The notes under the pieces: model-generated
What the model saw: the letters and a program-made list of their open reading frames with translations, nothing else
Told to the model about the DNA's origin: nothing
Database searches by the model: none
Origin: Spirochaetia bacterium
Lineage (GTDB): Bacteria; Spirochaetota; Spirochaetia; UBA9216
Assembly (NCBI GenBank): GCA_963675665.1
Contig: OY776510.1
Span: 139,840 to 203,839, forward strand
Reading direction: 5' to 3'
Length of the DNA stretch: 64,000 nt
Position numbers and translations under genes: made by a program
Part shown: piece after piece, positions 4,936 through 18,630 of the stretch
How the letters are laid out: each line of letters begins with the position of its first letter
Position numbering within the stretch: position 1 is the stretch's first letter

Positions 4936-7101
4936 TCAGAATTTAAGCTTGCTTCCAAGCGTACTTTTTAATGTCTCCGCGGCATCTTCCGCGGCCTTTT
5001 CAACCTCATCGGGGACCGCATCCTGAAGCAATTTTTCCGCCTGTTTTGCGATATTGTCCTTTACCGACTGTTCAATTTCAGCAATTTTGTCATCAGCCAT
5101 CGATCTGTATTTATCGAGTTCCTGTTCATAATTTCTGATTTTATCAGCATAGGACTCAAACTGCTCCCTTGCCGAATCGAACTCCCGGAGCGGTTCTGCG
5201 AGCTCAGCGTCCAGATAATCCTTCAGCATCTGTAACCCCTCATCAGCGCCCTCTTTCAGCATGGCTGAAGCAGCATTGCCGAGGCTGTCATCCAGTTCGG
5301 TTTCAACCGAAATATCAAAACCGGTGCTATCGTTCCAGGTAAAACTGCCGATCGCCGTCAGGGGTTTTACCGATTCAAGGCTGGTGTTGACAAGCCTGTA
5401 TAAAAGTCCCTCCGGTTTTTCTGACTCGAGATTAAGCTCAACTGCTTCCAGACCGAAATCACCGGCAAATCCGTCTTCGTTCCACCCAAGGCCACTGTCA
5501 AGCGACAGCGAACCGGAAAATACGGAAATATCAAGCGCCGACAGGCTGCCGCCCAAATCAAACGGCACGGAAGGCACATCAAGCGTAAGGCTGCTCTCGG
5601 TAATCAGGGCTTCCGCGGCTCCTGTCGCCGGGGTATCTATCCCGATTTCGAGGCTGGTTTCGTTTTCCCATTTGTCCGGTTCGCTTACCAGATCATTTAA
5701 AGACAGGTTATAACTCAACCCTGGCTCTTCACCGGAAGCAAAAGCATGAACCAGAACAAAGCCCGGCGGGGCGTCTGCCGGAGGGGGAAGACTTCTGCCG
5801 GGCCTTCTTTTCTCCGGAGACTTTTCCTTTTTAAGATCTGAAAGACGTTTAAAACGTCCGTACCACTCAAGGCCGCGATCCAGGTACGACAGGTATTTCT
5901 GAAGCGGTGCGGACAGCTTTTCTTCAAGAATTGAAGCCGCCCAGTCAACCTTCTCACCGGCCGGCAATGTAACAAGACCTTCAATATAGTCATAATCGTT
6001 CGAGATTGCAGTCTTTATTGCATCAATCATTGATGAGGCTTCATTAATCCCGGCTTCAACGGCAGCCAAATCGTTTGCTGCGGATGAGTAATCCTGTTCC
6101 GCATCATTATATATCTTTTCAAGCTTTGAGATTGTGGACTGTGCGCTTTCAAGGGTCTGAAAGGAACCGGCGTTTACCGTTTTGATGTAATTAACGGAAG
6201 TCTCCCAGCCGTCAATCCTTGATTCCCATTCCCCGGCCTTGCCCTCCCACTGCCCTGCGTAGCCTTCAACTTTCATCTTTGAATCTTCAAGAACTGTAAA
6301 ACTTTCAAGGTTTTCCTTCTGCTGCGCAAGAATCTCTTCAACGTCGATTTCCCCGGCAATGGCCCCAAGCTGGTTGACAACATCCGTAATGGAATCCTTT
6401 CCGGCAGACACCAGTTTCCCGGCGGCCCCCTGCTTCTGATTTCCGGAAGACGCCTTGTCCGAATCTTCCGGTACAGCATCTCCGTCTTTGTCCGCAGGCG
6501 CTCCCGTTTCGGGAGCAGGAAGCAGCCCTGATTCGGCTCTTTCAGTGCCCCGCTTCAGTCCTGAAAACCCAAGCTCCTCTATAAGAACCCGGCCCTGAAG
6601 AAGTTCCGCCGTATCAAGATCAGCAGTAACCGATGAACATTCAAAAAGATTTTTCATAGGGTTCTGCGCGTCCGCTACAGCAAAGTATTCGAGCGAAAAT
6701 TCACCCTTGAAGATTGAAAGCTCAACGCCGTCCGTATCAACCTGTGCGAGAAATATCTTTTCAAGTTGAGTTTCCAGCAATCTCTGAACAAGCATATTCT
6801 TCAGATAGAATTCAAAGAAGACTATACCGCCTGCAACAATCACCAAGATAAAGATGAGTATGAAATTAAGACGCTTCCTGTTCTGTTTTATCGCTTTTCC
6901 GAGGGCTTTCAGTCGTTTCAGATCTTTTTTGGACAAACCCTCTGCATTCACCCTTACCATGCCGTTTTCTTCAACCAGCAGCGATTCAAGAAATTTCCGG
7001 TCCTCCGGCAGGTAAATTTTCTTTATATACTTTTTTTCCCATTTCTTCTTATCAACAGCCTTTGAAAATATTCCGGGCGCTTTCCTTTTTTTATCAGCCA
7101 T
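4936..7101 (-). CDS. Large membrane-anchored coiled-coil protein of unknown function
   Basis: 721 aa. It has a Lys-rich N-terminus, a single TM segment (LNFILIFILVIVAGGIVFF), then long acidic coiled-coil regions. It lies immediately downstream of the DUF2062 gene. Confidence 0.5.
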   Translation of the reverse strand: MADKKRKAPGIFSKAVDKKKWEKKYIKKIYLPEDRKFLESLLVEENGMVRVNAEGLSKKDLKRLKALGKAIKQNRKRLNFILIFILVIVAGGIVFFEFYLKNMLVQRLLETQLEKIFLAQVDTDGVELSIFKGEFSLEYFAVADAQNPMKNLFECSSVTADLDTAELLQGRVLIEELGFSGLKRGTERAESGLLPAPETGAPADKDGDAVPEDSDKASSGNQKQGAAGKLVSAGKDSITDVVNQLGAIAGEIDVEEILAQQKENLESFTVLEDSKMKVEGYAGQWEGKAGEWESRIDGWETSVNYIKTVNAGSFQTLESAQSTISKLEKIYNDAEQDYSSAANDLAAVEAGINEASSMIDAIKTAISNDYDYIEGLVTLPAGEKVDWAASILEEKLSAPLQKYLSYLDRGLEWYGRFKRLSDLKKEKSPEKRRPGRSLPPPADAPPGFVLVHAFASGEEPGLSYNLSLNDLVSEPDKWENETSLEIGIDTPATGAAEALITESSLTLDVPSVPFDLGGSLSALDISVFSGSLSLDSGLGWNEDGFAGDFGLEAVELNLESEKPEGLLYRLVNTSLESVKPLTAIGSFTWNDSTGFDISVETELDDSLGNAASAMLKEGADEGLQMLKDYLDAELAEPLREFDSAREQFESYADKIRNYEQELDKYRSMADDKIAEIEQSVKDNIAKQAEKLLQDAVPDEVEKAAEDAAETLKSTLGSKLKF

Positions 7102-8229: not shown

Positions 8230-9234
8230 TCAGCCGAGAATATCCGATTCCACCGTCTTCAGCATCCGTGAAACTTCGTCGCGGTCGGCGGAATAATAGA
8301 TCCTTTTGCGTTCTCCCCGCTGGTAGCCTACCAGGTTCAGATTACTCAGCTTGCTCATATGATATGATACCGTAGCCGAAGTAAGATCAAGTTCATCGGC
8401 CAGTTCCCTGATAAACCACGGTTTCCGGCACAGCATGCGCAGAATAGTCCGCCTGCTTTCATCTGCAAGAAGACTGTAAATTTGATCCAGCGGAAGAGAA
8501 AATTCCCGAACAAGATCTTTCCGCCGCCGTCCGTAAACAATTGCCTGGGGGTTATCCAACTGGATAATGTCCGTTTCATCGTAGTAACTGATATAAATTT
8601 CCTGCCCTGCATCATCTTCAGAATAATTAATATGAAATACTTCCGAATAGAATGCAGCCGGATCCTGCTCAAACAGCAGTTGCTCCTCTGAAAGTTCCTT
8701 CTTCATCAGATCAAGCACTGCCTTTTCATACGGCGCTATTGCCGCGCTGTAAAAATCCTCCATAATTATAACCAGTCTTTGCCGGATGACATCCGGCCTG
8801 TGATAAAAGTCAAGAAAAAACTCAGGTTCATTCGCCCTGGTTGTCCCGCCTGCTTTTTGGATAGCATTTATAATTTTTTCAGGCTCATCCTTTACCGAGT
8901 TGAAATCTATATCGGTTTTATATGAATTAAAAAGTCTTTCAGGCAGACCGGCGGAAGGTAATTCTTTGAATGTTTTTATCAATTCAGCCGGTGAATTTAT
9001 TTCATTTTGTAAGGCTGTCTCGACAGGCAGGAACAAGAGTCCCAGAAAATTAGTGACGAGATATCGAATATCATTGTCGAGCAGACCCGGCAGATTCGAC
9101 TTTGCTGTTCTGTACCACTTCTCAAGTTCGGAACTGACACGGTATCCGGGAATATTAACCGCAAATTCATCCCAGTGTGCATACTGAAGCAATGCACAGC
9201 ACAGATCCACTGCCGGATTATATCTTATCTTCAT
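8230..9234 (-). CDS. ArsR-family transcriptional regulator with a long uncharacterised N-terminal domain
   Basis: The C-terminus (RRTILRMLCRKPWFIRELADELDLTSATVSYHMSKLSNLNLV) is an ArsR/SmtB-type winged HTH. The roughly 240 aa upstream have no recognisable motif. The gene overlaps the MFS gene by 17 nt. Confidence 0.65.
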   Translation of the reverse strand: MKIRYNPAVDLCCALLQYAHWDEFAVNIPGYRVSSELEKWYRTAKSNLPGLLDNDIRYLVTNFLGLLFLPVETALQNEINSPAELIKTFKELPSAGLPERLFNSYKTDIDFNSVKDEPEKIINAIQKAGGTTRANEPEFFLDFYHRPDVIRQRLVIIMEDFYSAAIAPYEKAVLDLMKKELSEEQLLFEQDPAAFYSEVFHINYSEDDAGQEIYISYYDETDIIQLDNPQAIVYGRRRKDLVREFSLPLDQIYSLLADESRRTILRMLCRKPWFIRELADELDLTSATVSYHMSKLSNLNLVGYQRGERKRIYYSADRDEVSRMLKTVESDILG

Positions 9235-10444
9235 TCGCAGGCTCCCTGATTAAGAGATAGGCGAAGGCTGATAATGCAAGCAGCCCTCCCGATAACATCC
9301 ATGCCGCCGGAATATTTGCCTTAAGCGCAATCTGACCGGCAACAACAGCGCCCGCAGCACCTCCGGCCTGAAGGAAAAGGGAATTGAGCGACAGCAGGCT
9401 GGAACGTTTGTCCGACGGAATATTCCGGTTAAAAACAGTCATTTCCGGCGATTCTGTAATGCCGTGTGTAAAGAAAAGTATAAAGTATATGGGCGCAAAA
9501 CTGCCTGTTGTGGATGTAAAAGAAAGTAGAATATAAAATACTCCCATTAATAACCTGAAAGACACCATTACCGGCACATATCTGTTTCCGGTCAGCTTCA
9601 GGATTCTGGAAGAAATCGCATTGCCCGCCGCCGCCGAAACAAAATACCCGGCGGCAAGCAGACCAAGGATCCAGGTGCCGGTCTCCGGCGAAATATTTCT
9701 GACATGCGGTTGCCACAGCTGTTCAAGACCCGAAAGACCGATACCCAACGCGCCTGTTGCCATCAGAACTGCAAAAACATTGCGCTGCCGTATACCGAAT
9801 TTCATTGCGGAGCCGAGCACATGAGGGAAGTTCTGAAACCCGGCGGCAATGTTTTTTGAAAAGCCGTCCCTGCTTTCCTTTATGACGACCACCGTCAGAA
9901 AAATTTGAATAATATAAAGCAGAATAAGAACAACAATATTTGTACGAATGGTACCGGATATATCGGGAATAATACCGCCGGCCAAAGTCCCCGCCCCCAA
10001 GGCCGCAGGGATTACAACACCGGCCGCGGCAAGATCTTTCTGCAGTTGCCGGTCGTCGCCGCCCAGGCGCTTGTGTTCATCCACAAACCAGGCATCAATC
10101 GAACCGGACGACAGCGCGCGTCCGGTACCTGCAAGAATTACTGCAGCAAGCAGAATAATAAAAGTACCGGCGGCAAGTATCAGCGAATATCCGGCTATAT
10201 AAAAGACAACTGCAATGATATAAACCCGTTTTCTACCGAGAGTATCTGATAATCCTCCGGTAGGCAGTTCCAGCACCAGAACTGTAGTTCCCATCACTGC
10301 CATGGCGATTCCTACCTGCCCGATATTAAATCCCAAATCCATCAGAGCAAGAATCATCACGGGGATAACAATACCCATTGAAAACCAGTGCATCCCCTGG
10401 TTTATGCTGTAACGAATTAACAGTTCTTTATGCGAACGGACCAT
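9218..10444 (-). CDS. MFS transporter
   Basis: 408 aa with 12 predicted TM segments and an MFS signature-like GRKRVY motif after TM2. Confidence 0.7.
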   Translation of the reverse strand: MVRSHKELLIRYSINQGMHWFSMGIVIPVMILALMDLGFNIGQVGIAMAVMGTTVLVLELPTGGLSDTLGRKRVYIIAVVFYIAGYSLILAAGTFIILLAAVILAGTGRALSSGSIDAWFVDEHKRLGGDDRQLQKDLAAAGVVIPAALGAGTLAGGIIPDISGTIRTNIVVLILLYIIQIFLTVVVIKESRDGFSKNIAAGFQNFPHVLGSAMKFGIRQRNVFAVLMATGALGIGLSGLEQLWQPHVRNISPETGTWILGLLAAGYFVSAAAGNAISSRILKLTGNRYVPVMVSFRLLMGVFYILLSFTSTTGSFAPIYFILFFTHGITESPEMTVFNRNIPSDKRSSLLSLNSLFLQAGGAAGAVVAGQIALKANIPAAWMLSGGLLALSAFAYLLIREPANEDKI

Positions 10445-11552: not shown

Positions 11553-12232
11553 AAGTCTCACGGCTTCTGCAGCATGAAGCTCCATAGTGTTGAAAACAGG
11601 GATATCAACATCTTTCTGTTTTATCAGCAGCGGGATTTCCGTACAGCCCAGAACAACCCCTCGGCGCCGGCCTTTTCCAATTCGGAGATTATATTACGAA
11701 AAAGATCTCTTGACTTGTCCTTTAACTCGCCGAGGCAGAGTTCATTATATATCACGCTGTGAACAATATCCATCTCGCTGCTTTCAGGAATAATTACATC
11801 TATACCGTGCCGGTCTTTTAACCTTCCCCTGTAGAAATCCTGCTCCATGGTGAACCTGGTGCCGAGAAGCCCTACGGTATGAAATCCGCGACGTTTTATT
11901 TCTTCGGCTGCGGCATCGGCAATATGAAGCAAAGGTATACCAATGTTTTTCTGCACGTCATCAGCCATTTTATGCATCGTATTTGTACATATCATAAGCA
12001 TATCCGCACCCGCATTCTCCAGCATGATCGCAACCTCAGTCATCTGCCTGCTGAGTTCACCCCAGTCTTCTTTATGCTGGAGGGCTTCAATTTCTTCAAA
12101 ATCAACAGAATACATCAAAGTCTTTGCCGAATGAAGTCCGCCGAGCGCTGATTTGACCCCGGTATTCAGCAGCCGGTAGTATTCAAGAGAAGACTCCCAG
12201 CTCATTCCGCCTATCATTCCTATTGTTTTCAT
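11532..12232 (-). pseudogene. Asp/Glu/hydantoin-racemase-family amino-acid racemase (YgeA/RacX-like), interrupted by a -1 frameshift in a poly-G run
   Basis: The ORF 11624..12232 encodes MKTIGMIGGMSWESSLEYYR...AEG, then leaves the family pattern (LFWAVRKSRC*). Inserting one G into the cccc run at 11657..11660 (gggg on the coding strand) restores GVVLGCTEIPLLIKQKDVDIPVFNTMELHAAEAVRLSIREAV*, which matches the conserved C-terminus of E. coli YgeA (GVIFGCTEIGLL...LPVFDTAAIHAEDAV) as I recall it. The restored frame ends at 11532. Confidence 0.7.
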
Positions 12233-12409
12233 ATGCCCTCCTGATTCCGGTATCAGTACATCTTCTTACAATACAGTCCTTTTTTCAAGCAGAAATACCG
12301 GTTTTAAAGTGAGGCCTCCATATTGGACAGTAACATCTCTGCCGGCTACAGGGTTATATAACAGGAAATGTGTGCTTTTCCAATCGCAATGTGATAACAT
12401 TACGGCTGA

Positions 12410-13351
12410 ATGCAGAACAATGAATATTTCTCACAGTTATTATATCTTCTTGTCTATTCCAGCGCGCTTATCTGTGTCGCAGCAGTAGTCGTATTCAGGA
12501 CAAGACTGAAAACCGAACCAGGCGTGCATCTGAACAGGTTTATACTTTCGCTTGCATTCACCGGGTCACTGGTTTCAATTCAGGTCTTTCTGAATGCGGT
12601 AGGAATCCTTGACCGGTTGAACGAATCAAGCACTTCAAGACTAATTATAATAATGAATATGCTCATAATAGCTGCAATTTCTTTGATTGTTCATTCGGCC
12701 GTTTCAATTTCTCTGTTAACAAGGCCTTCCGGATTCAACCGCAGGATTATTTTTACCGTATCAGTCGTTATTACTGCAATGCTTATAAATACCGCCGCGC
12801 TTCAGATCCTGACTCTTGTTTCTCACTCAACTGCTGCCTCGGCACTTCTGGAGATAGTAATGTCGGCGGGGATCATCCTGTATGCCGCAGGCATAACCTT
12901 CTCGGCGATCCGGCTGTTTATACCTCTCAGGATGAAAGACGACCCCGTGATTCTACCGGCAATCAGACTGAATCTGCTGTTCATTTTGATTCTGCCGGCG
13001 TTTTATATAATTTCTGACAGTTTAATAGGCGCCCTCCTTGCGCCCGCGGGGTTTATCGCAATTAATATCCTCAGCCTCAGAATTCTGTACTTGAGATTAA
13101 ATACTCATCCGAAGGACCACGCAAAAAAGGATGAACCGGAAACAGCAGCAACCTGCAGGGAACTGGGCCTTTCGGGAAGGGAAACCGATGTTGCGCTTCT
13201 GCTTGCAGAGGGAAGATCGTATAAAGAGATCGCAGCCGACTTGTGTATATCAATGTCTACTACCCAGACGCATGTCGGCAGGATATATACGAAACTGGGA
13301 ATAAACAGTAAAACTGAACTGGCAAACCTTTTATTCTACAAAAAAACCTGA
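12410..13351 (+). CDS. Membrane-integral LuxR/GerE-family transcriptional regulator (about 7 TM + C-terminal HTH)
   Basis: The first roughly 240 aa are seven hydrophobic helices. The C-terminal 65 aa (LSGRETDVALLLAEGRSYKEIAADLCISMSTTQTHVGRIYTKLGINSKTELANL) are a canonical LuxR-type HTH. Confidence 0.7.
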   Translation: MQNNEYFSQLLYLLVYSSALICVAAVVVFRTRLKTEPGVHLNRFILSLAFTGSLVSIQVFLNAVGILDRLNESSTSRLIIIMNMLIIAAISLIVHSAVSISLLTRPSGFNRRIIFTVSVVITAMLINTAALQILTLVSHSTAASALLEIVMSAGIILYAAGITFSAIRLFIPLRMKDDPVILPAIRLNLLFILILPAFYIISDSLIGALLAPAGFIAINILSLRILYLRLNTHPKDHAKKDEPETAATCRELGLSGRETDVALLLAEGRSYKEIAADLCISMSTTQTHVGRIYTKLGINSKTELANLLFYKKT

Positions 13352-13442
13352 TTATACGACAAAAATCATACAAACATACGACTGTTTAGCAACCGATAAC
13401 AAGCCTATATTAAATGCAGACAACTGATAAGGAGTATTCAGA

Positions 13443-14582
13443 ATGAAAAAGATGATATTGATTTTACTTGCAGTTCTGCTTTCACCAACAGGAGTGTTTG
13501 CAGCCTCTTTCAATATCAATGAAAATAAAAATGAGGATCTGGCGGATATCAGAAAAATAGTTTTTGATTTGAAGTCGCCGAATTGTGCAATCTGCATAAG
13601 TACAGGCCGTCAGTCGTACAGCTTTACCGGCGGAGGCAGGCCGGGGATTCTTTCGCTTTCACTTGAAGGAGATTTAAAATCAAACAATAAAAAGGCCGTG
13701 CCCTCAATTATCACCAGCAGGGAAGGAGATATCCTCTATATAAGGCTTTTCGGCAACAACAATCTTTTCTTCGGCCTTGTTCAAAGCGGGTCTGTTCATA
13801 TGCACGCAGAATTTCCTGATTACTTTAACGGCGATATCACTATAAAAACCTCATCCGGGAATTCAACTGTTGCTGATCTGAATCTGAAGTCCTTTATGCT
13901 TGATTCCAGCTCCGGAGATAATGAACTCAGAGACATTGAGGCTGAAAAGATCGGAATCGAACTGAGCTCGGGAAATGTAACTGCTGAAAATCTTGCATCG
14001 GTCGGTGGAATCAGCATCAAATCATCTTCGGGAGACCTGAACCTCGATGAGCTGCTGTCGGAATCGGCGGAAATCAGGGCCAGCTCGGGACGAATTAATA
14101 TACAAAGACTCAGATGCACCGGCAATCTTGATATCCATGCAAGCTCCGGCAGAATTTCCGCCGGATATCTTGAAGGAGGCGCAGTAGCGGTAGATGCAAC
14201 CTCGGGCAGCATAACCATAAAAGAGCTGCAGGGCAAGAATGTACAGATAGAAGCCTCGTCGGGTGACATTACCCTGGGAGCCCTTGCTGCCGAATCATCC
14301 GCATTTGAAGCCTCGTCAGGAAACACGGTAATAGGTGTAGAACCTTTTAACGGTGATATTTCCGTAAAAAGCAGCTCAGGGGATGTAACTATTGAACTGC
14401 CGGCTGATGCTTCATTTACAGCAGACCTTAATGCTTCCTCAGGCAAAATAAGAAGCGATTTCCCTCTGCTTGCTGAAATAACCGGCGACAGAAAGAACGA
14501 AATAAAAGGCGAAGCCAACGGAGGCGGCTATTCAGTCAGAGTTAAAGCTTCAAGCGGAAACATAACTATCAAGGAAAGATAA
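13443..14582 (+). CDS. Secreted DUF4097 (LiaF-like) beta-helix repeat protein
   Basis: It has a signal peptide (MKKMILILLAVLLSPTGVFA). It then carries at least nine tandem repeats of about 20 aa built on (S/T)SG(D/N/R)(I/V)x(I/L) (SSGDLNL, SSGRINI, SSGRISA, TSGSITI, SSGDITL, SSGNTVI, SSGDVTI, SSGKIRS, SSGNITI), typical of DUF4097 putative adhesin domains. Confidence 0.7.
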   Translation: MKKMILILLAVLLSPTGVFAASFNINENKNEDLADIRKIVFDLKSPNCAICISTGRQSYSFTGGGRPGILSLSLEGDLKSNNKKAVPSIITSREGDILYIRLFGNNNLFFGLVQSGSVHMHAEFPDYFNGDITIKTSSGNSTVADLNLKSFMLDSSSGDNELRDIEAEKIGIELSSGNVTAENLASVGGISIKSSSGDLNLDELLSESAEIRASSGRINIQRLRCTGNLDIHASSGRISAGYLEGGAVAVDATSGSITIKELQGKNVQIEASSGDITLGALAAESSAFEASSGNTVIGVEPFNGDISVKSSSGDVTIELPADASFTADLNASSGKIRSDFPLLAEITGDRKNEIKGEANGGGYSVRVKASSGNITIKER

Positions 14583-14614: not shown

Positions 14615-14649
14615 CGGCAGCCGAAAAACGGCTGCCGTTATGTTTTTTT
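14615..14649 (+). terminator. Rho-independent terminator after the DUF4097 gene
   Basis: The hairpin cggcagccg-aaaaa-cggctgccg is followed by TTATGTTTTTTT. Confidence 0.7.
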
Positions 14650-14659
14650 GCCGTACGAA

Positions 14660-15544
14660 TTACACAGCTTTCCAGTACATCCTGTTGTCGCGGAATTTGT
14701 ATTCCGCCTTTCCGTTATTATAAAGATAAGATAAAAAAGATTTCACAGTGCTGCCGACAAGGACGTACTGCCCGTGATTCAGGGTTATTTTTCTTTCGTC
14801 ACAGAAAAACTTCAATAAATCTTCAAAAATAATTTCATCACAAATCAAACGCAGTATGTCGCGAACGGCTTCTGCAACCGTATTCAGATTAAGCGCGGCT
14901 ATTTTAGAAACATCATTTACCAAATCGCCGTGGCAGGGCACATAATAATCCGCTTTTACTGCCATAATCTTCTCTATGCTTCCGATAAAGGCTTCAACAT
15001 CGTAGATAAACGGAAGCCCGTATTTTTTTATTATATCCTCGCCGAAAAGACTGTCTCCCAGGAAAAACACGCCGTCGTCGGTAAGAATTCCGTACTGATT
15101 AAAAAAATGTCCCGGAAGCCCGATAAAATTCAATCCTTCAATCTTCGAATCTTCGGAGATAATCCGGTCAACATGAGAAGCTTTCGCTTCAAAAAACTTG
15201 GAACGCAGTTCCTTAAAAGGAAAGCCTCCCCATAAAAAACTCGGCTCAAGAAGCGGGGTTTCGGTAAATGAGGCTTCTGTTTGAGATGTCCAGATTTCAC
15301 ATCCGGCATTATTCTGAAGATAAGCATTGCCTCCGATATGGTCCGCATTTGAATGGGTATTTATTACAGCCTTGATCTTTCGGCCGCTCTCCCTGACTAC
15401 CTTGTACAGTTTTCGTCCGGCGTCCTTGTCGCCTCCGCTGTCTATCAGGTAAACTCCGTCGCTGCCTTCAATAATACCTATATTGACCGCTCCCCTTGAT
15501 ATGAACGTACTTCCTTTCAATTGCTCAAAAAACCCTTCTGACAT
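14660..15544 (-). CDS. MBL-fold metallo-hydrolase
   Basis: It has the HxHxDH motif (INTHSNADHIGG) and downstream His/Asp ligands. The product is 294 aa. Confidence 0.7.
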   Translation of the reverse strand: MSEGFFEQLKGSTFISRGAVNIGIIEGSDGVYLIDSGGDKDAGRKLYKVVRESGRKIKAVINTHSNADHIGGNAYLQNNAGCEIWTSQTEASFTETPLLEPSFLWGGFPFKELRSKFFEAKASHVDRIISEDSKIEGLNFIGLPGHFFNQYGILTDDGVFFLGDSLFGEDIIKKYGLPFIYDVEAFIGSIEKIMAVKADYYVPCHGDLVNDVSKIAALNLNTVAEAVRDILRLICDEIIFEDLLKFFCDERKITLNHGQYVLVGSTVKSFLSYLYNNGKAEYKFRDNRMYWKAV

Positions 15545-15660: not shown

Positions 15661-18630
15661 ATGAAAAACAGTATAACTAAAGTATCAAAAATACACCTTA
15701 GATTTCAGATAAGCCTGCTTTTTTTGATTCTGGTTATGCTGATCATTTTAACATTTTCAATTCTTTTCGCAGTACTGTCGGTCAATAAAAATATCAGCAG
15801 GCAAAGAGCTGAGCAGTTATTCAGCAAAACAGGGCAGTCAATAATACTAAAACTTGATTCACAGCTTGAAAAGGCTATTCAGTTTGCCGGCCTGATGACG
15901 CATCTGCAGCAGTTTTCAGCAGAAATTGAAAACAACGGCCAGTCCCATCCGGGACTTCCTTTCATGTTCGAGGCGCTTAAACACAACAGCTATTTTTATT
16001 CTGTTTATGCAGGCTTTGAAAACGGAGATTTTATCCAACTTATCAACACCTTGGGAAGCCCATTAATCATCAATGCCCACTCGGCCCCGGACGAGACCGC
16101 TTTTATCCTGAGAGCCATCAACAGCTCAGAAGGCAACCGCACGGAATACTGGACGTTTTTCGATTCCTCATATAGAACCCTGGGTTCGGCGATTAACAAC
16201 TCTCCTGATTATTTTCCTTCAGAGAGGCCATGGTATATATCAGCCGACCAAAACAGAGGAGAGGTAATTCTTACCGAACCCTATGTTTATAATTCGTTGA
16301 AGCAACCCGGAATAACAGCCGCCTCATCTGTTTCCGGACTCTCTGTCGCCGGAATTGATATTACCCTTTCAGGTCTGAATACGTTTCTCGACAGCATGTT
16401 TATTTCACCGGGCACCGGCATTATTGTTCTTACCGGCGAGAACAGGGTTCTGGCATCCAGTCGGCAAATGAGCGAAAAACTTGGAATATCGGGAACTGAA
16501 CTTTCAAAAACGGACCCGATTCAGCACGAGAGGAATCAAATGCTTTGGGAAAATCCATGGACCACTCCCGGCGGGCAGAATTACAGACTTGTCATTACAG
16601 CACCCGCATCGGACTTCCTTCAGCATCAGTATATAATTCAGAGACAAATAATATTGATTTCCATAATTATTTTTGTCCTTTTTCTTCCGGCAATAATAGT
16701 CTCAAGCAAATATCTGAGCCGTTTTCTGGAAAATCTTGCCGATGACGCTGAAAAAATTCAGAATCTGGTTTTCGACGAAAAGGATGAGGAACATTCATTT
16801 ATTATTGAGTTTGACAAGCTTGCAGAAGCCTTCAGGGTTATGAAAAAGGCAATTGCCGCCAAAACTAAAGCGCTTCAGGATGCGAAAACAAAGCTTGAGC
16901 GAATAATCAACCTCGGCATTGCCATGACAGTAGAGGAAGATACCGATAAGCTTATTGAGATGATTCTTACCGGAGCAAAAGAGATTTCTCATGCGGACGG
17001 AGGAAGCCTGTATCTGAAAGGTGATAAGGACGAACTTGATTTCAGGATTGTTTTTAACGACAGTCTTGGTTTTATCCAGGGAGGAACCAGTAAAAACCGG
17101 ATTACAATGCCGCCTGTATGTCTGTATGATGAAGACGGTACACCCAACTTTCATAATGTTGTTTCCTGTGCTTTTCATAAGGGAAAAACAATCGTAATAG
17201 AGGATGCTTACAAAGATCCCGACTTTGATTTTTCGGGAACAAGAAAATTCGACGAACTTAACAATTACCGATCAAAATCCTTTATCACAGTACCACTCAA
17301 GCTTGAAGGAAGCGAAATCCTCGGCGCGCTTCAGCTTATAAATTGTATGCCTGACAAAACCGGCGGAATTGTCCCTTTCAATAGTGAGATCCGCAGCTTT
17401 GTAGAAGCCCTGAGCGCGCTTGCTGCAGTTATTCTGTACAACAGAAGCCTGATGGAATCACAGGAAGCACTGTTTGAAGCCCTGATACGCCTGATTGCAA
17501 GCGCCATAGACACAAAAAGTCCGTACACGGGAGGCCACTGCGAACGTGTTCCAGTTCTGGCGACAATGCTTGCCGATGCGGCAGAAAAAGCAGAGACAGG
17601 GTCTCTCGGTAATTTTCGGTTTCAATCACAGGAAGACAGAAAAGCTTTTATTATCGGGGCATGGCTTCATGATGCCGGCAAAATGACAACTCCGGAATTT
17701 GTTGTCGATAAAGCTGTCAAACTTGAAACAATATACAACAGAATACATGAGATAAGAACAAGGTTTGAAATACTTCTGCGAGATGAACTTCTAAAACAGA
17801 AAGAAGCTCTTCTGGCCGGCAGGAACCCCGAAGCGGCAACAGCAGAACTTGAAGCTGCAGTTGCCAGGCTGCATGATGATTTTAATTTTATCGCCAGCTG
17901 CAATACCGGAGAAAATCCTGTAGCGGAAGAATGTGAAAAACGGATAACAGAATTAAGCCGTATAACATGGACAAGCCATTTTGATCATACAATCGGCTTG
18001 TCGCGGGAAGAAGCAGAAAAAACCGAAACACCGTTTGTAATGGGAAAAACAATTGAAGAACCTCTGATAGCGGACAAACCGGCACATATTATCGCAGACA
18101 GGGGGAAAACCAAAGCCCTGTATGAAAGTTACGGTTTTGCACTTCCAAAACCGTCATATCTTTACAACAGAGGTGAAATCCATAACCTGATGATATGGAA
18201 AGGAACACTCACTGATGAAGAACGCTTCAAGGTAAATGAACATATAATGCAGACCATAGTCATGCTGGATCAGCTCCCGTTTCCGAAAGGCCTTCACAAA
18301 ATTCCGGAATATGTAGGAACACATCATGAAACATTATCGGGTAAAGGTTATCCGCGGGGCCTGGATGCTTCAAAACTTTCCATACCGTCAAGGATAATGG
18401 CAATTGCAGATATTTTTGAAGCCTTGACTGCCGCTGATCGGCCGTATAAAAATGCTTATAAATTGTCAAAAGCAATCGCGATACTGCATGAACTTGCAGT
18501 TTCAAGGCATATTGATTCTGATCTTTTCGAACTGTTTCTGACGTCAGGTATTTACCGGAAATATGCGGAACAGTACCTGCCTCCTGAAATGATTGATGAA
18601 GTAGATATAAATAAATATCTGGGTCAATAA
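15661..18630 (+). CDS. Membrane sensor HD-GYP c-di-GMP phosphodiesterase (periplasmic Cache-like domain - TM - HAMP - GAF - HD-GYP)
   Basis: Two TM segments flank a roughly 280-aa extracytoplasmic region. A HAMP-like linker and a GAF-like region follow. The C-terminus has HD (WLHDAGK) and HHETLSGKGYPRGL, the HD-GYP hallmark. Confidence 0.75.
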   Translation: MKNSITKVSKIHLRFQISLLFLILVMLIILTFSILFAVLSVNKNISRQRAEQLFSKTGQSIILKLDSQLEKAIQFAGLMTHLQQFSAEIENNGQSHPGLPFMFEALKHNSYFYSVYAGFENGDFIQLINTLGSPLIINAHSAPDETAFILRAINSSEGNRTEYWTFFDSSYRTLGSAINNSPDYFPSERPWYISADQNRGEVILTEPYVYNSLKQPGITAASSVSGLSVAGIDITLSGLNTFLDSMFISPGTGIIVLTGENRVLASSRQMSEKLGISGTELSKTDPIQHERNQMLWENPWTTPGGQNYRLVITAPASDFLQHQYIIQRQIILISIIIFVLFLPAIIVSSKYLSRFLENLADDAEKIQNLVFDEKDEEHSFIIEFDKLAEAFRVMKKAIAAKTKALQDAKTKLERIINLGIAMTVEEDTDKLIEMILTGAKEISHADGGSLYLKGDKDELDFRIVFNDSLGFIQGGTSKNRITMPPVCLYDEDGTPNFHNVVSCAFHKGKTIVIEDAYKDPDFDFSGTRKFDELNNYRSKSFITVPLKLEGSEILGALQLINCMPDKTGGIVPFNSEIRSFVEALSALAAVILYNRSLMESQEALFEALIRLIASAIDTKSPYTGGHCERVPVLATMLADAAEKAETGSLGNFRFQSQEDRKAFIIGAWLHDAGKMTTPEFVVDKAVKLETIYNRIHEIRTRFEILLRDELLKQKEALLAGRNPEAATAELEAAVARLHDDFNFIASCNTGENPVAEECEKRITELSRITWTSHFDHTIGLSREEAEKTETPFVMGKTIEEPLIADKPAHIIADRGKTKALYESYGFALPKPSYLYNRGEIHNLMIWKGTLTDEERFKVNEHIMQTIVMLDQLPFPKGLHKIPEYVGTHHETLSGKGYPRGLDASKLSIPSRIMAIADIFEALTAADRPYKNAYKLSKAIAILHELAVSRHIDSDLFELFLTSGIYRKYAEQYLPPEMIDEVDINKYLGQ

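Follow-up and report, generated by a model that had tools for sequence, protein, structure and literature searches.

A membrane-integrated LuxR-type protein and an exported Toastrack protein as a putative regulator-target cassette of Spirochaetes

Transcription factors that are tethered to the inner membrane and bind DNA without any phosphotransfer are represented by ToxR-ToxS, TcpP-TcpH, CadC and BcrR, and in ToxRS and TcpPH the gene of a periplasmic partner follows that of the regulator. Toastrack proteins (DUF4097, DUF2154, DUF2807) are widespread partners of the Lia and Psp envelope-stress systems. Closest in architecture to the locus treated here are DadR, HcdR and CadR of Eggerthella lenta, LuxR-type activators of neighbouring genes with 10-12 transmembrane (TM) helices, which have been proven genetically (Dong et al. 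2022, PMC9734109). Further, PspA-free neighbourhoods in which Toastrack genes stand beside PadR-HAAS, GntR, sigma, LytTR or DUF2089 regulators have been proposed to encode membrane-proximal signalling units (Ravi et al. 2024, PMC11237479). In the present study we analyzed a gene pair within a 64-kb stretch of a Spirochaetia genome (contig OY776510.1), termed the window in the following. Gene A encodes a polytopic membrane protein with a C-terminal LuxR/GerE helix-turn-helix (HTH), and gene B, directly downstream, an exported Toastrack (DUF4097) protein; coordinates are compiled in Table 1. We consider it probable that both form a self-contained regulator-target cassette of Spirochaetes, with A as a membrane-integrated one-component activator and B as its main local target.

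Architecture and conservation of the gene pair

The open reading frame (ORF) check returned A and B exactly where the preliminary description, made from the letters of the window, had placed them; the spacer measures 91 nt. The GerE domain at residues 254-306 is the sole Pfam match in A (PF00196, E 1.1e-13, 51 bits against a cut-off of 23.5). No Response_reg match was obtained with Pfam, residues 1-231 being occupied by seven TM helices, and response-regulator models of NCBIfam align to A by their C-terminal 55-60 positions only and far under their cut-offs. Seven hydrophobic segments are present (residues 10-28, 44-62, 78-96, 113-131, 149-167, 180-198 and 205-223). An AlphaFold2 model built on 16 homologues likewise exhibits seven long helices at a mean predicted local distance difference test (pLDDT) value of 81, followed by a disordered linker at 235-243 (pLDDT below 50) and a helical HTH region at 245-309 with four to five helices. 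Lysine and arginine residues are concentrated in loops 1, 3 and 5 and in the tail, with 10 of them inside versus 2 outside in A and 149 versus 29 over the 16 homologues. From this distribution an outer N terminus and a cytoplasmic HTH are predicted. The periplasmic loops are short throughout. According to the alignment combined with model helices and topology, 16 of the 17 invariant residues of the TM domain are located in the outer, periplasm-facing part or in the middle of the bundle, and the polar ones include Q9, Y12, Y16, S56, Q58, N83, Q132 and N219. In the model, the outer residues may line a periplasm-facing pocket or a docking site.

The seven-helix domain belongs to a tiny uncharacterised family. 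When 1.84 billion representatives were searched with a profile of residues 1-236, no more than 14 clusters were matched (E up to 1e-3). Of these, ten have a length of 307-335 aa, which fits seven TM helices plus HTH, and GerE was confirmed for several; two are shorter and apparently truncated or frameshifted, and an 877-aa protein matches over short stretches only. No Pfam family was matched by the TM domain of A at E up to 1, the 7TMR-DISM, MASE and 7TM families included. The 14 TM domains of the family gave scattered single matches to Pfam at E of 0.07 or more, and DUF2157 appeared for one of them at a non-significant E of 0.46. Searches of the TM domain and of B against PADLOC, NCBIfam and Pfam indicated neither a sensor family nor a link to defence systems, with weak matches restricted to the HTH or to motifs. 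Comparison of the model with G-protein-coupled receptor (GPCR) and rhodopsin folds by Foldseek was not significant (E at least 0.015, template modelling score at most 0.57). Microbial rhodopsins score like GPCRs against this model, which rests on 16 sequences, and the seven-helix likeness is a resemblance of predicted folds and not evidence of homology. The same 7-TM LuxR architecture is shared by a distant high-GC subfamily (P0152, P0154, P0157, P0158) with the motif SLQV(I/L)L(N/D)A in helix 2. In locus L064 (97-1452) of this subfamily the gene downstream encodes 138 aa, is unrelated and lacks a Pfam match; neither a Toastrack gene nor ATACGAC was found there, and a -10-like sequence, TATAGAAT, stands just before the start codon.

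The N terminus of B, MKKMILILLAVLLSPTGVFA followed by AS, resembles a Sec signal peptide. Its AxA/AS end is conserved in the family, and the complete arrangement of MKK, hydrophobic stretch and AxA/AS was found in at least 20 of 24 aligned members. A lipobox cysteine is absent from B; apart from the single signal-type segment the protein is of soluble type. DUF4097 (Toastrack, PF13349) is the only Pfam match (E 4.6e-38, 131 bits against a cut-off of 22.9), and the 12 (S/T)SG rungs recur with a period of 19-20 residues. The model is all-beta with a pLDDT of 89. Its best matches in the PDB are the Toastrack structures 4QRK, 3LJY, 3LYC and 4OPW, with a Foldseek probability of 1.00 for 4QRK, 3LJY and 4OPW. 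Among NCBIfam models LiaG (NF049997) fits best with 150.6 bits, which is under the equivalog cut-off of 285 and covers mainly the C-terminal half of the model; LiaI-LiaF-TM and DUF2154 are lacking. In its N-terminal region, the mature protein carries a CxxC pair (PNCAIC, residues 48-51, 13584-13595), which is shared by 20 of 24 family members and may represent a periplasmic disulfide or a redox or metal site.

Downstream of B a hairpin at 14615-14637 with a 9-bp stem, eight G-C pairs and a subsequent T run forms an intrinsic terminator (free energy -18.8 kcal/mol, z -4.9); equal folding was reached in none of 200 shuffles. No terminator was found between A and B, so that some read-through into B is possible. 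The preliminary description had portrayed the locus as a protein of about seven TM helices with a GerE/LuxR HTH and no receiver, followed by a signal-peptide DUF4097 protein with at least nine repeats, with a strong terminator at the end. This outline was borne out in every part, the repeats now numbering 12. Two outcomes had been named there as refuting, an HTH predicted outside the cell and homologues lacking the pairing; the first did not occur, nor did the second in the 13 loci described below.

For an assessment of its conservation, genome contigs were scanned with a profile of the A alignment: two of 28 loci gave a full-length match, 25 matched by the HTH only, and L003, reached via the HTH alone, turned out to be a distant member. 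In total, full-length A homologues comprise 16 clusters of 34-54% identity, and the named ones are metagenome-assembled genomes (MAGs) of Spirochaetales. Each of the 13 A-family loci that could be inspected for a Toastrack gene contains the pair, within at least five different flanks, and such pairing is far beyond chance. B lies directly downstream on the same strand at a distance of 66-98 nt in L001, L002, L029/L030, L031, L032 (where the locus is cut by the contig end), L033, L034, L035 and L036. The public gene call in L036 is an antisense ORF (6444-7037, minus strand) in place of B, which tblastn recovers intact; a 232-aa antisense ORF inside gene B of the window (13820-14518, minus strand) is a by-product of the codon pattern of the SSG repeats. 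The pairs L037 and L038 were reached from B homologues, and their A proteins are 35% identical to that of the window. The identity matrices of A and B correlate with r = 0.84 (Mantel p = 2e-4). Over 11 loci the mean pairwise identity amounts to 50% for B and 40% for A, and within A to 75% for the HTH and 33% for the TM domain.

Control region and proposed mechanism

Alignment of the spacers revealed a near-invariant element, aAAAATca-TACAAAyATACGACTG. Its 16-nt core varies at no more than two positions over 12 loci, the A proteins of which are 34-54% identical to that of the window. Each pair locus holds a single copy of the core, which is missing from all 28 other loci and unique within the window at up to three mismatches. 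The element is found within about 25 nt of the A stop codon in every A-B locus, and a second ATACGAC, sometimes within the last codons of A, precedes the one in the core by 22 nt in about half of the loci. Between the core and TATATT, the presumed -10 hexamer, exactly 21 nt intervene in 10 of 12 loci, and no hexamer of -35 consensus was found at 16-18 nt from TATATT. The core would accordingly span about -49 to -34, a position used by LuxR-type activators, and the control region of B appears to be laid out like an activator-dependent promoter. A layout of this kind is known from the lux box. This control region is not mentioned in the preliminary description. As the spacer provides B with a promoter of its own and a conserved site of activator type, B is most likely primarily the regulated output of A; the adjacent B gene is perhaps its sole target. 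No convincing second copy of the operator was detected upstream of A or near the convergent metallo-beta-lactamase (MBL)-fold gene at up to four mismatches in 13 loci, and autoregulation of A through this motif is therefore not indicated. The spacer was also considered as an RNA element, which was rejected with no Rfam match at E up to 1 and no consensus structure (0 predicted pairs).

Gene A is preceded by an extended -10 sequence ending 9 nt 5' of its ATG, and no Shine-Dalgarno sequence is present before it. Due to both features the A mRNA is probably leaderless or nearly so. Of 12 homologous loci, 10 have the pattern TGnTAnnnT with its end 5-9 nt before the start codon of A. A is probably synthesized at a low, constitutive level.

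A variant of the cassette is given by L003 (4956-8008) from a high-GC Spirochaetes MAG. Its 7-TM LuxR protein matches the TM profile of the family over helices 1-3, and the linker is expanded to a proline-rich repeat (SPPLTG four times). Downstream follow a degenerate operator, a membrane-anchored M23 peptidase with three TM segments and a Toastrack lipoprotein with a lipobox-like LTASAC. The element, TAAATCATACGATCATCCGACAG, shares 12 of 16 core positions and has the same AAATCA in front, with TATCCT after 20 nt. This variant suggests that the element travels with this type of HTH and that the targets are envelope proteins.

Among solved structures, those closest in sequence to the HTH of A are LiaR of Enterococcus faecalis (4WT0, E 4.8e-9, 22 of 56 residues identical; 4WSZ), LiaR of E. 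faecium (5HEV) and VraR of Staphylococcus aureus, whereas NarL (1.8e-4) and GerE are weaker by about four orders of magnitude than LiaR. The identity of the LiaR entries was confirmed from the literature, where K174, K177 and T178 are given as base-contacting residues (PMC4482077). The recognition helix of A, STTQTHVGRIY, is nearly invariant in the family. For Bacillus subtilis the LiaR box reads ATAcGACtcccgGTCtTAT (PMC7191749), and an adjacent A tract is important for LiaR binding (PMC4447274). Judged against the inverted repeat ATAcGAC-N5-GTCtTAT, which fits T(X)4C(X)4G(X)4A, the ATACGAC of the operator corresponds to a half-site of the LiaR box; it is present twice in direct orientation with no conserved inverted partner.

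A search of metagenome contigs with the combined operator and -10 pattern (21 specified positions) gave 23 matches, none of them with A or B. About 20 of these represent one and the same promoter, in identical or slightly varied form, from human-gut and related metagenomes, the rest being singletons. This number is consistent with chance for a collection of that size, which holds none of the known pair loci. The recurring gut promoter, TTGAATAA-TACAAACATACGACTT-N21-TATAAT, is unrelated and precedes a gene starting with MPSIDLDDEF (L041, L043-L052, L054-L060, L062 and L063, mostly human gut). As it fits the 15-mer and the spacing by chance, the operator motif alone is not diagnostic.

Taking these observations together, the following course of events can be proposed. 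A would be made at a low and probably constitutive level from its extended -10 promoter as a leaderless mRNA, and would be inserted with a periplasmic N terminus and a seven-helix bundle whose invariant polar residues point mostly into the periplasm-facing half. A short linker would hold the LiaR/VraR-like HTH at the inner face of the membrane. In response to a signal in the membrane or periplasm, A dimers could bind the direct ATAC repeats and, from about -49 to -34, recruit RNA polymerase to the promoter lacking a -35 hexamer, by which B would be switched on. B is predicted to be exported by Sec and to act in the periplasm as a Toastrack scaffold, and it might in turn influence A. That the signal is related to the envelope is suggested by the Lia-like parts, by the export of the target and by the M23 peptidase of L003, and a role of the pair in envelope stress would be conceivable by analogy. 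With its operator placed at the 3' end of gene A, the tethered protein would reach its site more easily, and from this the unbroken linkage of A and B might be understood.

Several observations weigh against this proposal. The connection of A with the element is drawn from sequence, and another factor could bind there; a site overlapping the -35 position could also serve repression. Two of the three LiaR contacts differ in A, where K174, K177 and T178 correspond to S, Q and T. The operator repeats are direct and those of the LiaR box inverted, and the shared heptamer may be a coincidence, with a rough chance estimate of ~0.02 for a 7-mer between two short sites. Clear upstream copies of ATACGAC are limited to about half of the loci, and the 15-mer with its -10 hexamer arises by chance in unrelated metagenome contigs as well. 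B homologues at 33-35% identity occur with no GerE neighbour (L039, L040), and P0154 of L064, a member of a distant A subfamily, has neither B nor the element. Finally, the regulon may exceed B, 64 kb of the genome having been scanned.

A different function of B is possible, with the balance of evidence against it: like LiaF on LiaS or LiaX on LiaFSR, B could mainly act from the periplasm as a co-sensor or inhibitor, keeping A inactive until stress releases it. LiaX is described as surface-exposed and modulates LiaFSR. In line with such a role, A and B are strictly co-inherited with B being more conserved than A, and a membrane protein with short periplasmic loops and invariant polar residues in its outer half may need a partner; Toastrack domains have also been proposed as docking platforms in Lia/Psp-type signalling (PMC11237479). 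However, B is composed of DUF4097 only, with LiaG as the nearest model and none of the domains of LiaF, the Toastrack of LiaF is held to be cytoplasmic (PMC11237479) whereas B carries a signal peptide, and a regulated-looking promoter suits an output more than a stoichiometric partner. Inhibition by B can coexist with regulated output in the form of feedback. A rather doubtful combination of both would be a one-component descendant or analogue of Lia, in which a seven-helix receptor with a periplasm-facing polar pocket and a LiaR-type head reads an envelope signal with no phosphorelay and induces the LiaG-like B, and B docks on the receptor and tunes it. If this loop were true, a diderm would possess a sensing circuit closed within two genes, and B would be the first Toastrack protein to serve its regulator both as output and as extracytoplasmic ligand.

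The overlap of the element with the -35 position, together with possible read-through from A, would also allow A to act as a repressor that leaves the DNA upon the signal, B then being expressed from a weak promoter or by read-through. This is unlikely, as there is no -35 consensus to occlude, which is typical of activator-dependent promoters, and the characterised TM-LuxR proteins as well as LiaR and VraR are activators. Assignment of the element to a different protein, for instance an unlinked regulator or an alternative sigma factor, with A acting elsewhere and the adjacency reflecting a shared theme, would account for the altered base-contact residues of A; yet the element stands near the A stop codon in every A-B locus including the distant L003, whatever the flanks, and we regard this explanation as distinctly unlikely. 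To our knowledge, the element does not resemble promoter elements of the extracytoplasmic function (ECF) type or of sigma-54, which speaks against it too. Release of the HTH by proteolysis of the linker, leaving the membrane domain as mere anchor and sensor, would suit the disordered linker and its proline-rich expansion in L003. It appears quite improbable considering that no protease gene is conserved in the neighbourhood, that a target promoter beside the regulator's own gene fits tethered action and that DadR-type proteins are described as transmembrane activators. Mere synteny of two unrelated neighbours is very improbable: several loci do share adenosine deaminase, racemase and MBL-fold flanks, but the pair persists in L001, L029, L034, L037, L038 and L003 with different ones, and the near-invariant element lies in between. 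An activator A with B as its output accordingly stays the reading we prefer. In it, the anatomy, the predicted topology and the conservation of both the pair and the cis element are observations, and binding of A to the element, activation, the nature of the signal and the function of B are what we infer.

Table 1. Features of the A-B locus in the window
Feature	Position	Strand	Details
Extended -10 of gene A, TGATAACAT	12392-12400	+	hexamer TAACAT 12395-12400
Gene A, membrane-integrated LuxR-type one-component regulator (putative)	12410-13351	+	313 aa
7-TM domain of A	12410-13102	+	residues 1-231
Disordered linker of A		+	residues ~232-245
GerE HTH of A	13169-13327	+	residues 254-306
Putative operator, direct ATAC repeats	13354-13384	+	from spacer alignment
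Operator part ATACGAC	13354-13360	+
Operator part A tract	13361-13367	+
Operator part ATACAAAC	13368-13375	+
Operator part ATACGAC-TG	13376-13384	+
Operator core 16-mer TACAAACATACGACTG	13369-13384	+
-10 hexamer of B promoter, TATATT	13406-13411	+	21 nt after operator core
Shine-Dalgarno of B, AAGGAG	13429-13434	+	8 nt 5' of ATG; GGAG-type in most homologous loci
Gene B, exported Toastrack (DUF4097) beta-helix protein (predicted)	13443-14582	+	379 aa
Signal peptide of B	13443-13502	+	residues 1-20, VFA/AS
CxxC of B		+	C48, C51
SSG rungs of B		+	12, within residues 137-370
Intrinsic terminator after the pair	14615-14647	+	common to convergent MBL-fold gene
MBL-fold gene, cytoplasmic	14660-15544	-	frequent neighbour

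Neighbouring genes

Deaminase-racemase and MBL-fold genes flank several of the loci, and other neighbours are found in L001, L029, L034, L037 and L038. An orthologue of the MBL-fold gene adjoins the pair in L002, L031, L036 and, as a partial gene, L035, resulting in six loci when the window and L029 are counted. It is absent from L001, L033, L034, L037 and L038, and no operator copy lies near it. In L029 the gene has changed sides and diverges from A, all other neighbours being different. This joint move makes the linkage suggestive, and the MBL-fold gene is perhaps a third component in loose linkage with the pair.

No HisKA or HATPase gene occurs within about 4 kb up- or downstream of the pair in the window, and no such gene is conserved across the loci; HWE kinases were found near the pair in L037 and L038 only. 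An Asp/Glu racemase gene divergent from A (11559-12232, minus strand) looks frameshifted near 11655, the listed ORF stopping at 202 aa. Homologous racemases of 230-234 aa align to it with residues 1-194 in one frame and 192-225 in another, which points to either a pseudogene or a sequencing error. The stretch 8230-10444 (minus strand) holds two genes overlapping by 17 nt, one for a major facilitator superfamily (MFS) transporter and one for a 334-aa protein in which a long unassigned N-terminal region precedes an ArsR-type HTH at the C terminus. Both genes are found together again close to the pair in L032, L033, L035 and L038. At 15661-18630 (plus strand) follows a 989-aa membrane protein with GAF and HD-GYP-type (HD_5) domains, likely a cyclic di-GMP phosphodiesterase. 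In L034 its orthologue (61% identity) follows B immediately, and in L033 the beginning of one is present.

Comparison with known systems

The locus shares with LiaFSR and VraTSR an A tract adjoining the operator and a Toastrack protein encoded in the regulated locus. Unlike LiaFSR it has no histidine kinase, no receiver and no LiaF with its DUF2154 and LiaI-LiaF-TM domains, and neither a PspA-like LiaH nor LiaI is encoded nearby. Further, LiaFSR and VraTSR belong to Firmicutes, whereas the host of the A-B pair is a diderm. The preliminary description had taken DUF4097 as the hallmark of LiaF. This does not hold, as LiaF carries DUF2154 and LiaI-LiaF-TM and it is LiaG that carries DUF4097 (PMC11237479). 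The analogy to Lia drawn there can be retained for the HTH, closest to LiaR and VraR, and for the ATACGAC half-site, but not for B, which is predicted to be exported and not a four-TM inhibitor, so that a LiaF-like role is not indicated. As a whole, the A-B cassette is a rare relative of the Lia circuit of envelope stress that has no kinase, but its principle is not new. If the kinship to Lia is true, it shows the rewiring of a two-component output module into a one-component system.

Like the neighbourhoods collected by Ravi et al., the pair places a Toastrack gene beside a dedicated transcription factor in the absence of PspA. LuxR or GerE as a partner of Toastrack has no occurrence in the main text of that study (PMC11237479). 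Toastrack has been argued to be intracellular (PMC11237479), whereas B has a conserved signal peptide and is predicted to be periplasmic; it would be a counter-example to the view that Toastrack is always intracellular. With a sensor that is itself a transcription factor, a sharply defined candidate operator and one exported Toastrack product, the cassette reduces the Toastrack problem to two genes and one control region of 50 bp. The role of Toastrack in the envelope and its feedback on the regulator become directly testable questions.

ToxR, TcpP, CadC and BcrR have an N-terminal HTH of OmpR or XRE type, one to four TM helices and a periplasmic sensor domain. A differs from them by its C-terminal LuxR HTH, its bundle of seven helices and the near absence of periplasmic mass.

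DadR, HcdR and CadR resemble A in the fusion of an N-terminal polytopic domain to a C-terminal LuxR/GerE HTH with neither receiver nor kinase. They possess 10-12 helices compared to seven in A, and matches of Coriobacteriia proteins to A cover residues 234-308 only. DadR-type proteins control reductases of the cytoplasmic or respiratory kind that small molecules induce, whereas the target of A would be an exported Toastrack protein. DadR-type regulators occur in Coriobacteriia with dozens of paralogues per genome; A stems from another phylum, is present as a single copy in the 64-kb window and has very few family members. The architecture, called uncommon in the preliminary description, is so as a family, but not as a principle in view of the activators known from Eggerthella (PMC9734109). 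With membrane LuxR activators already known, the new aspects are the pair kept in 13 loci, the seven-helix sensor domain and a new phylum and target class, by which membrane-integrated LuxR regulators are extended beyond Coriobacteriia.

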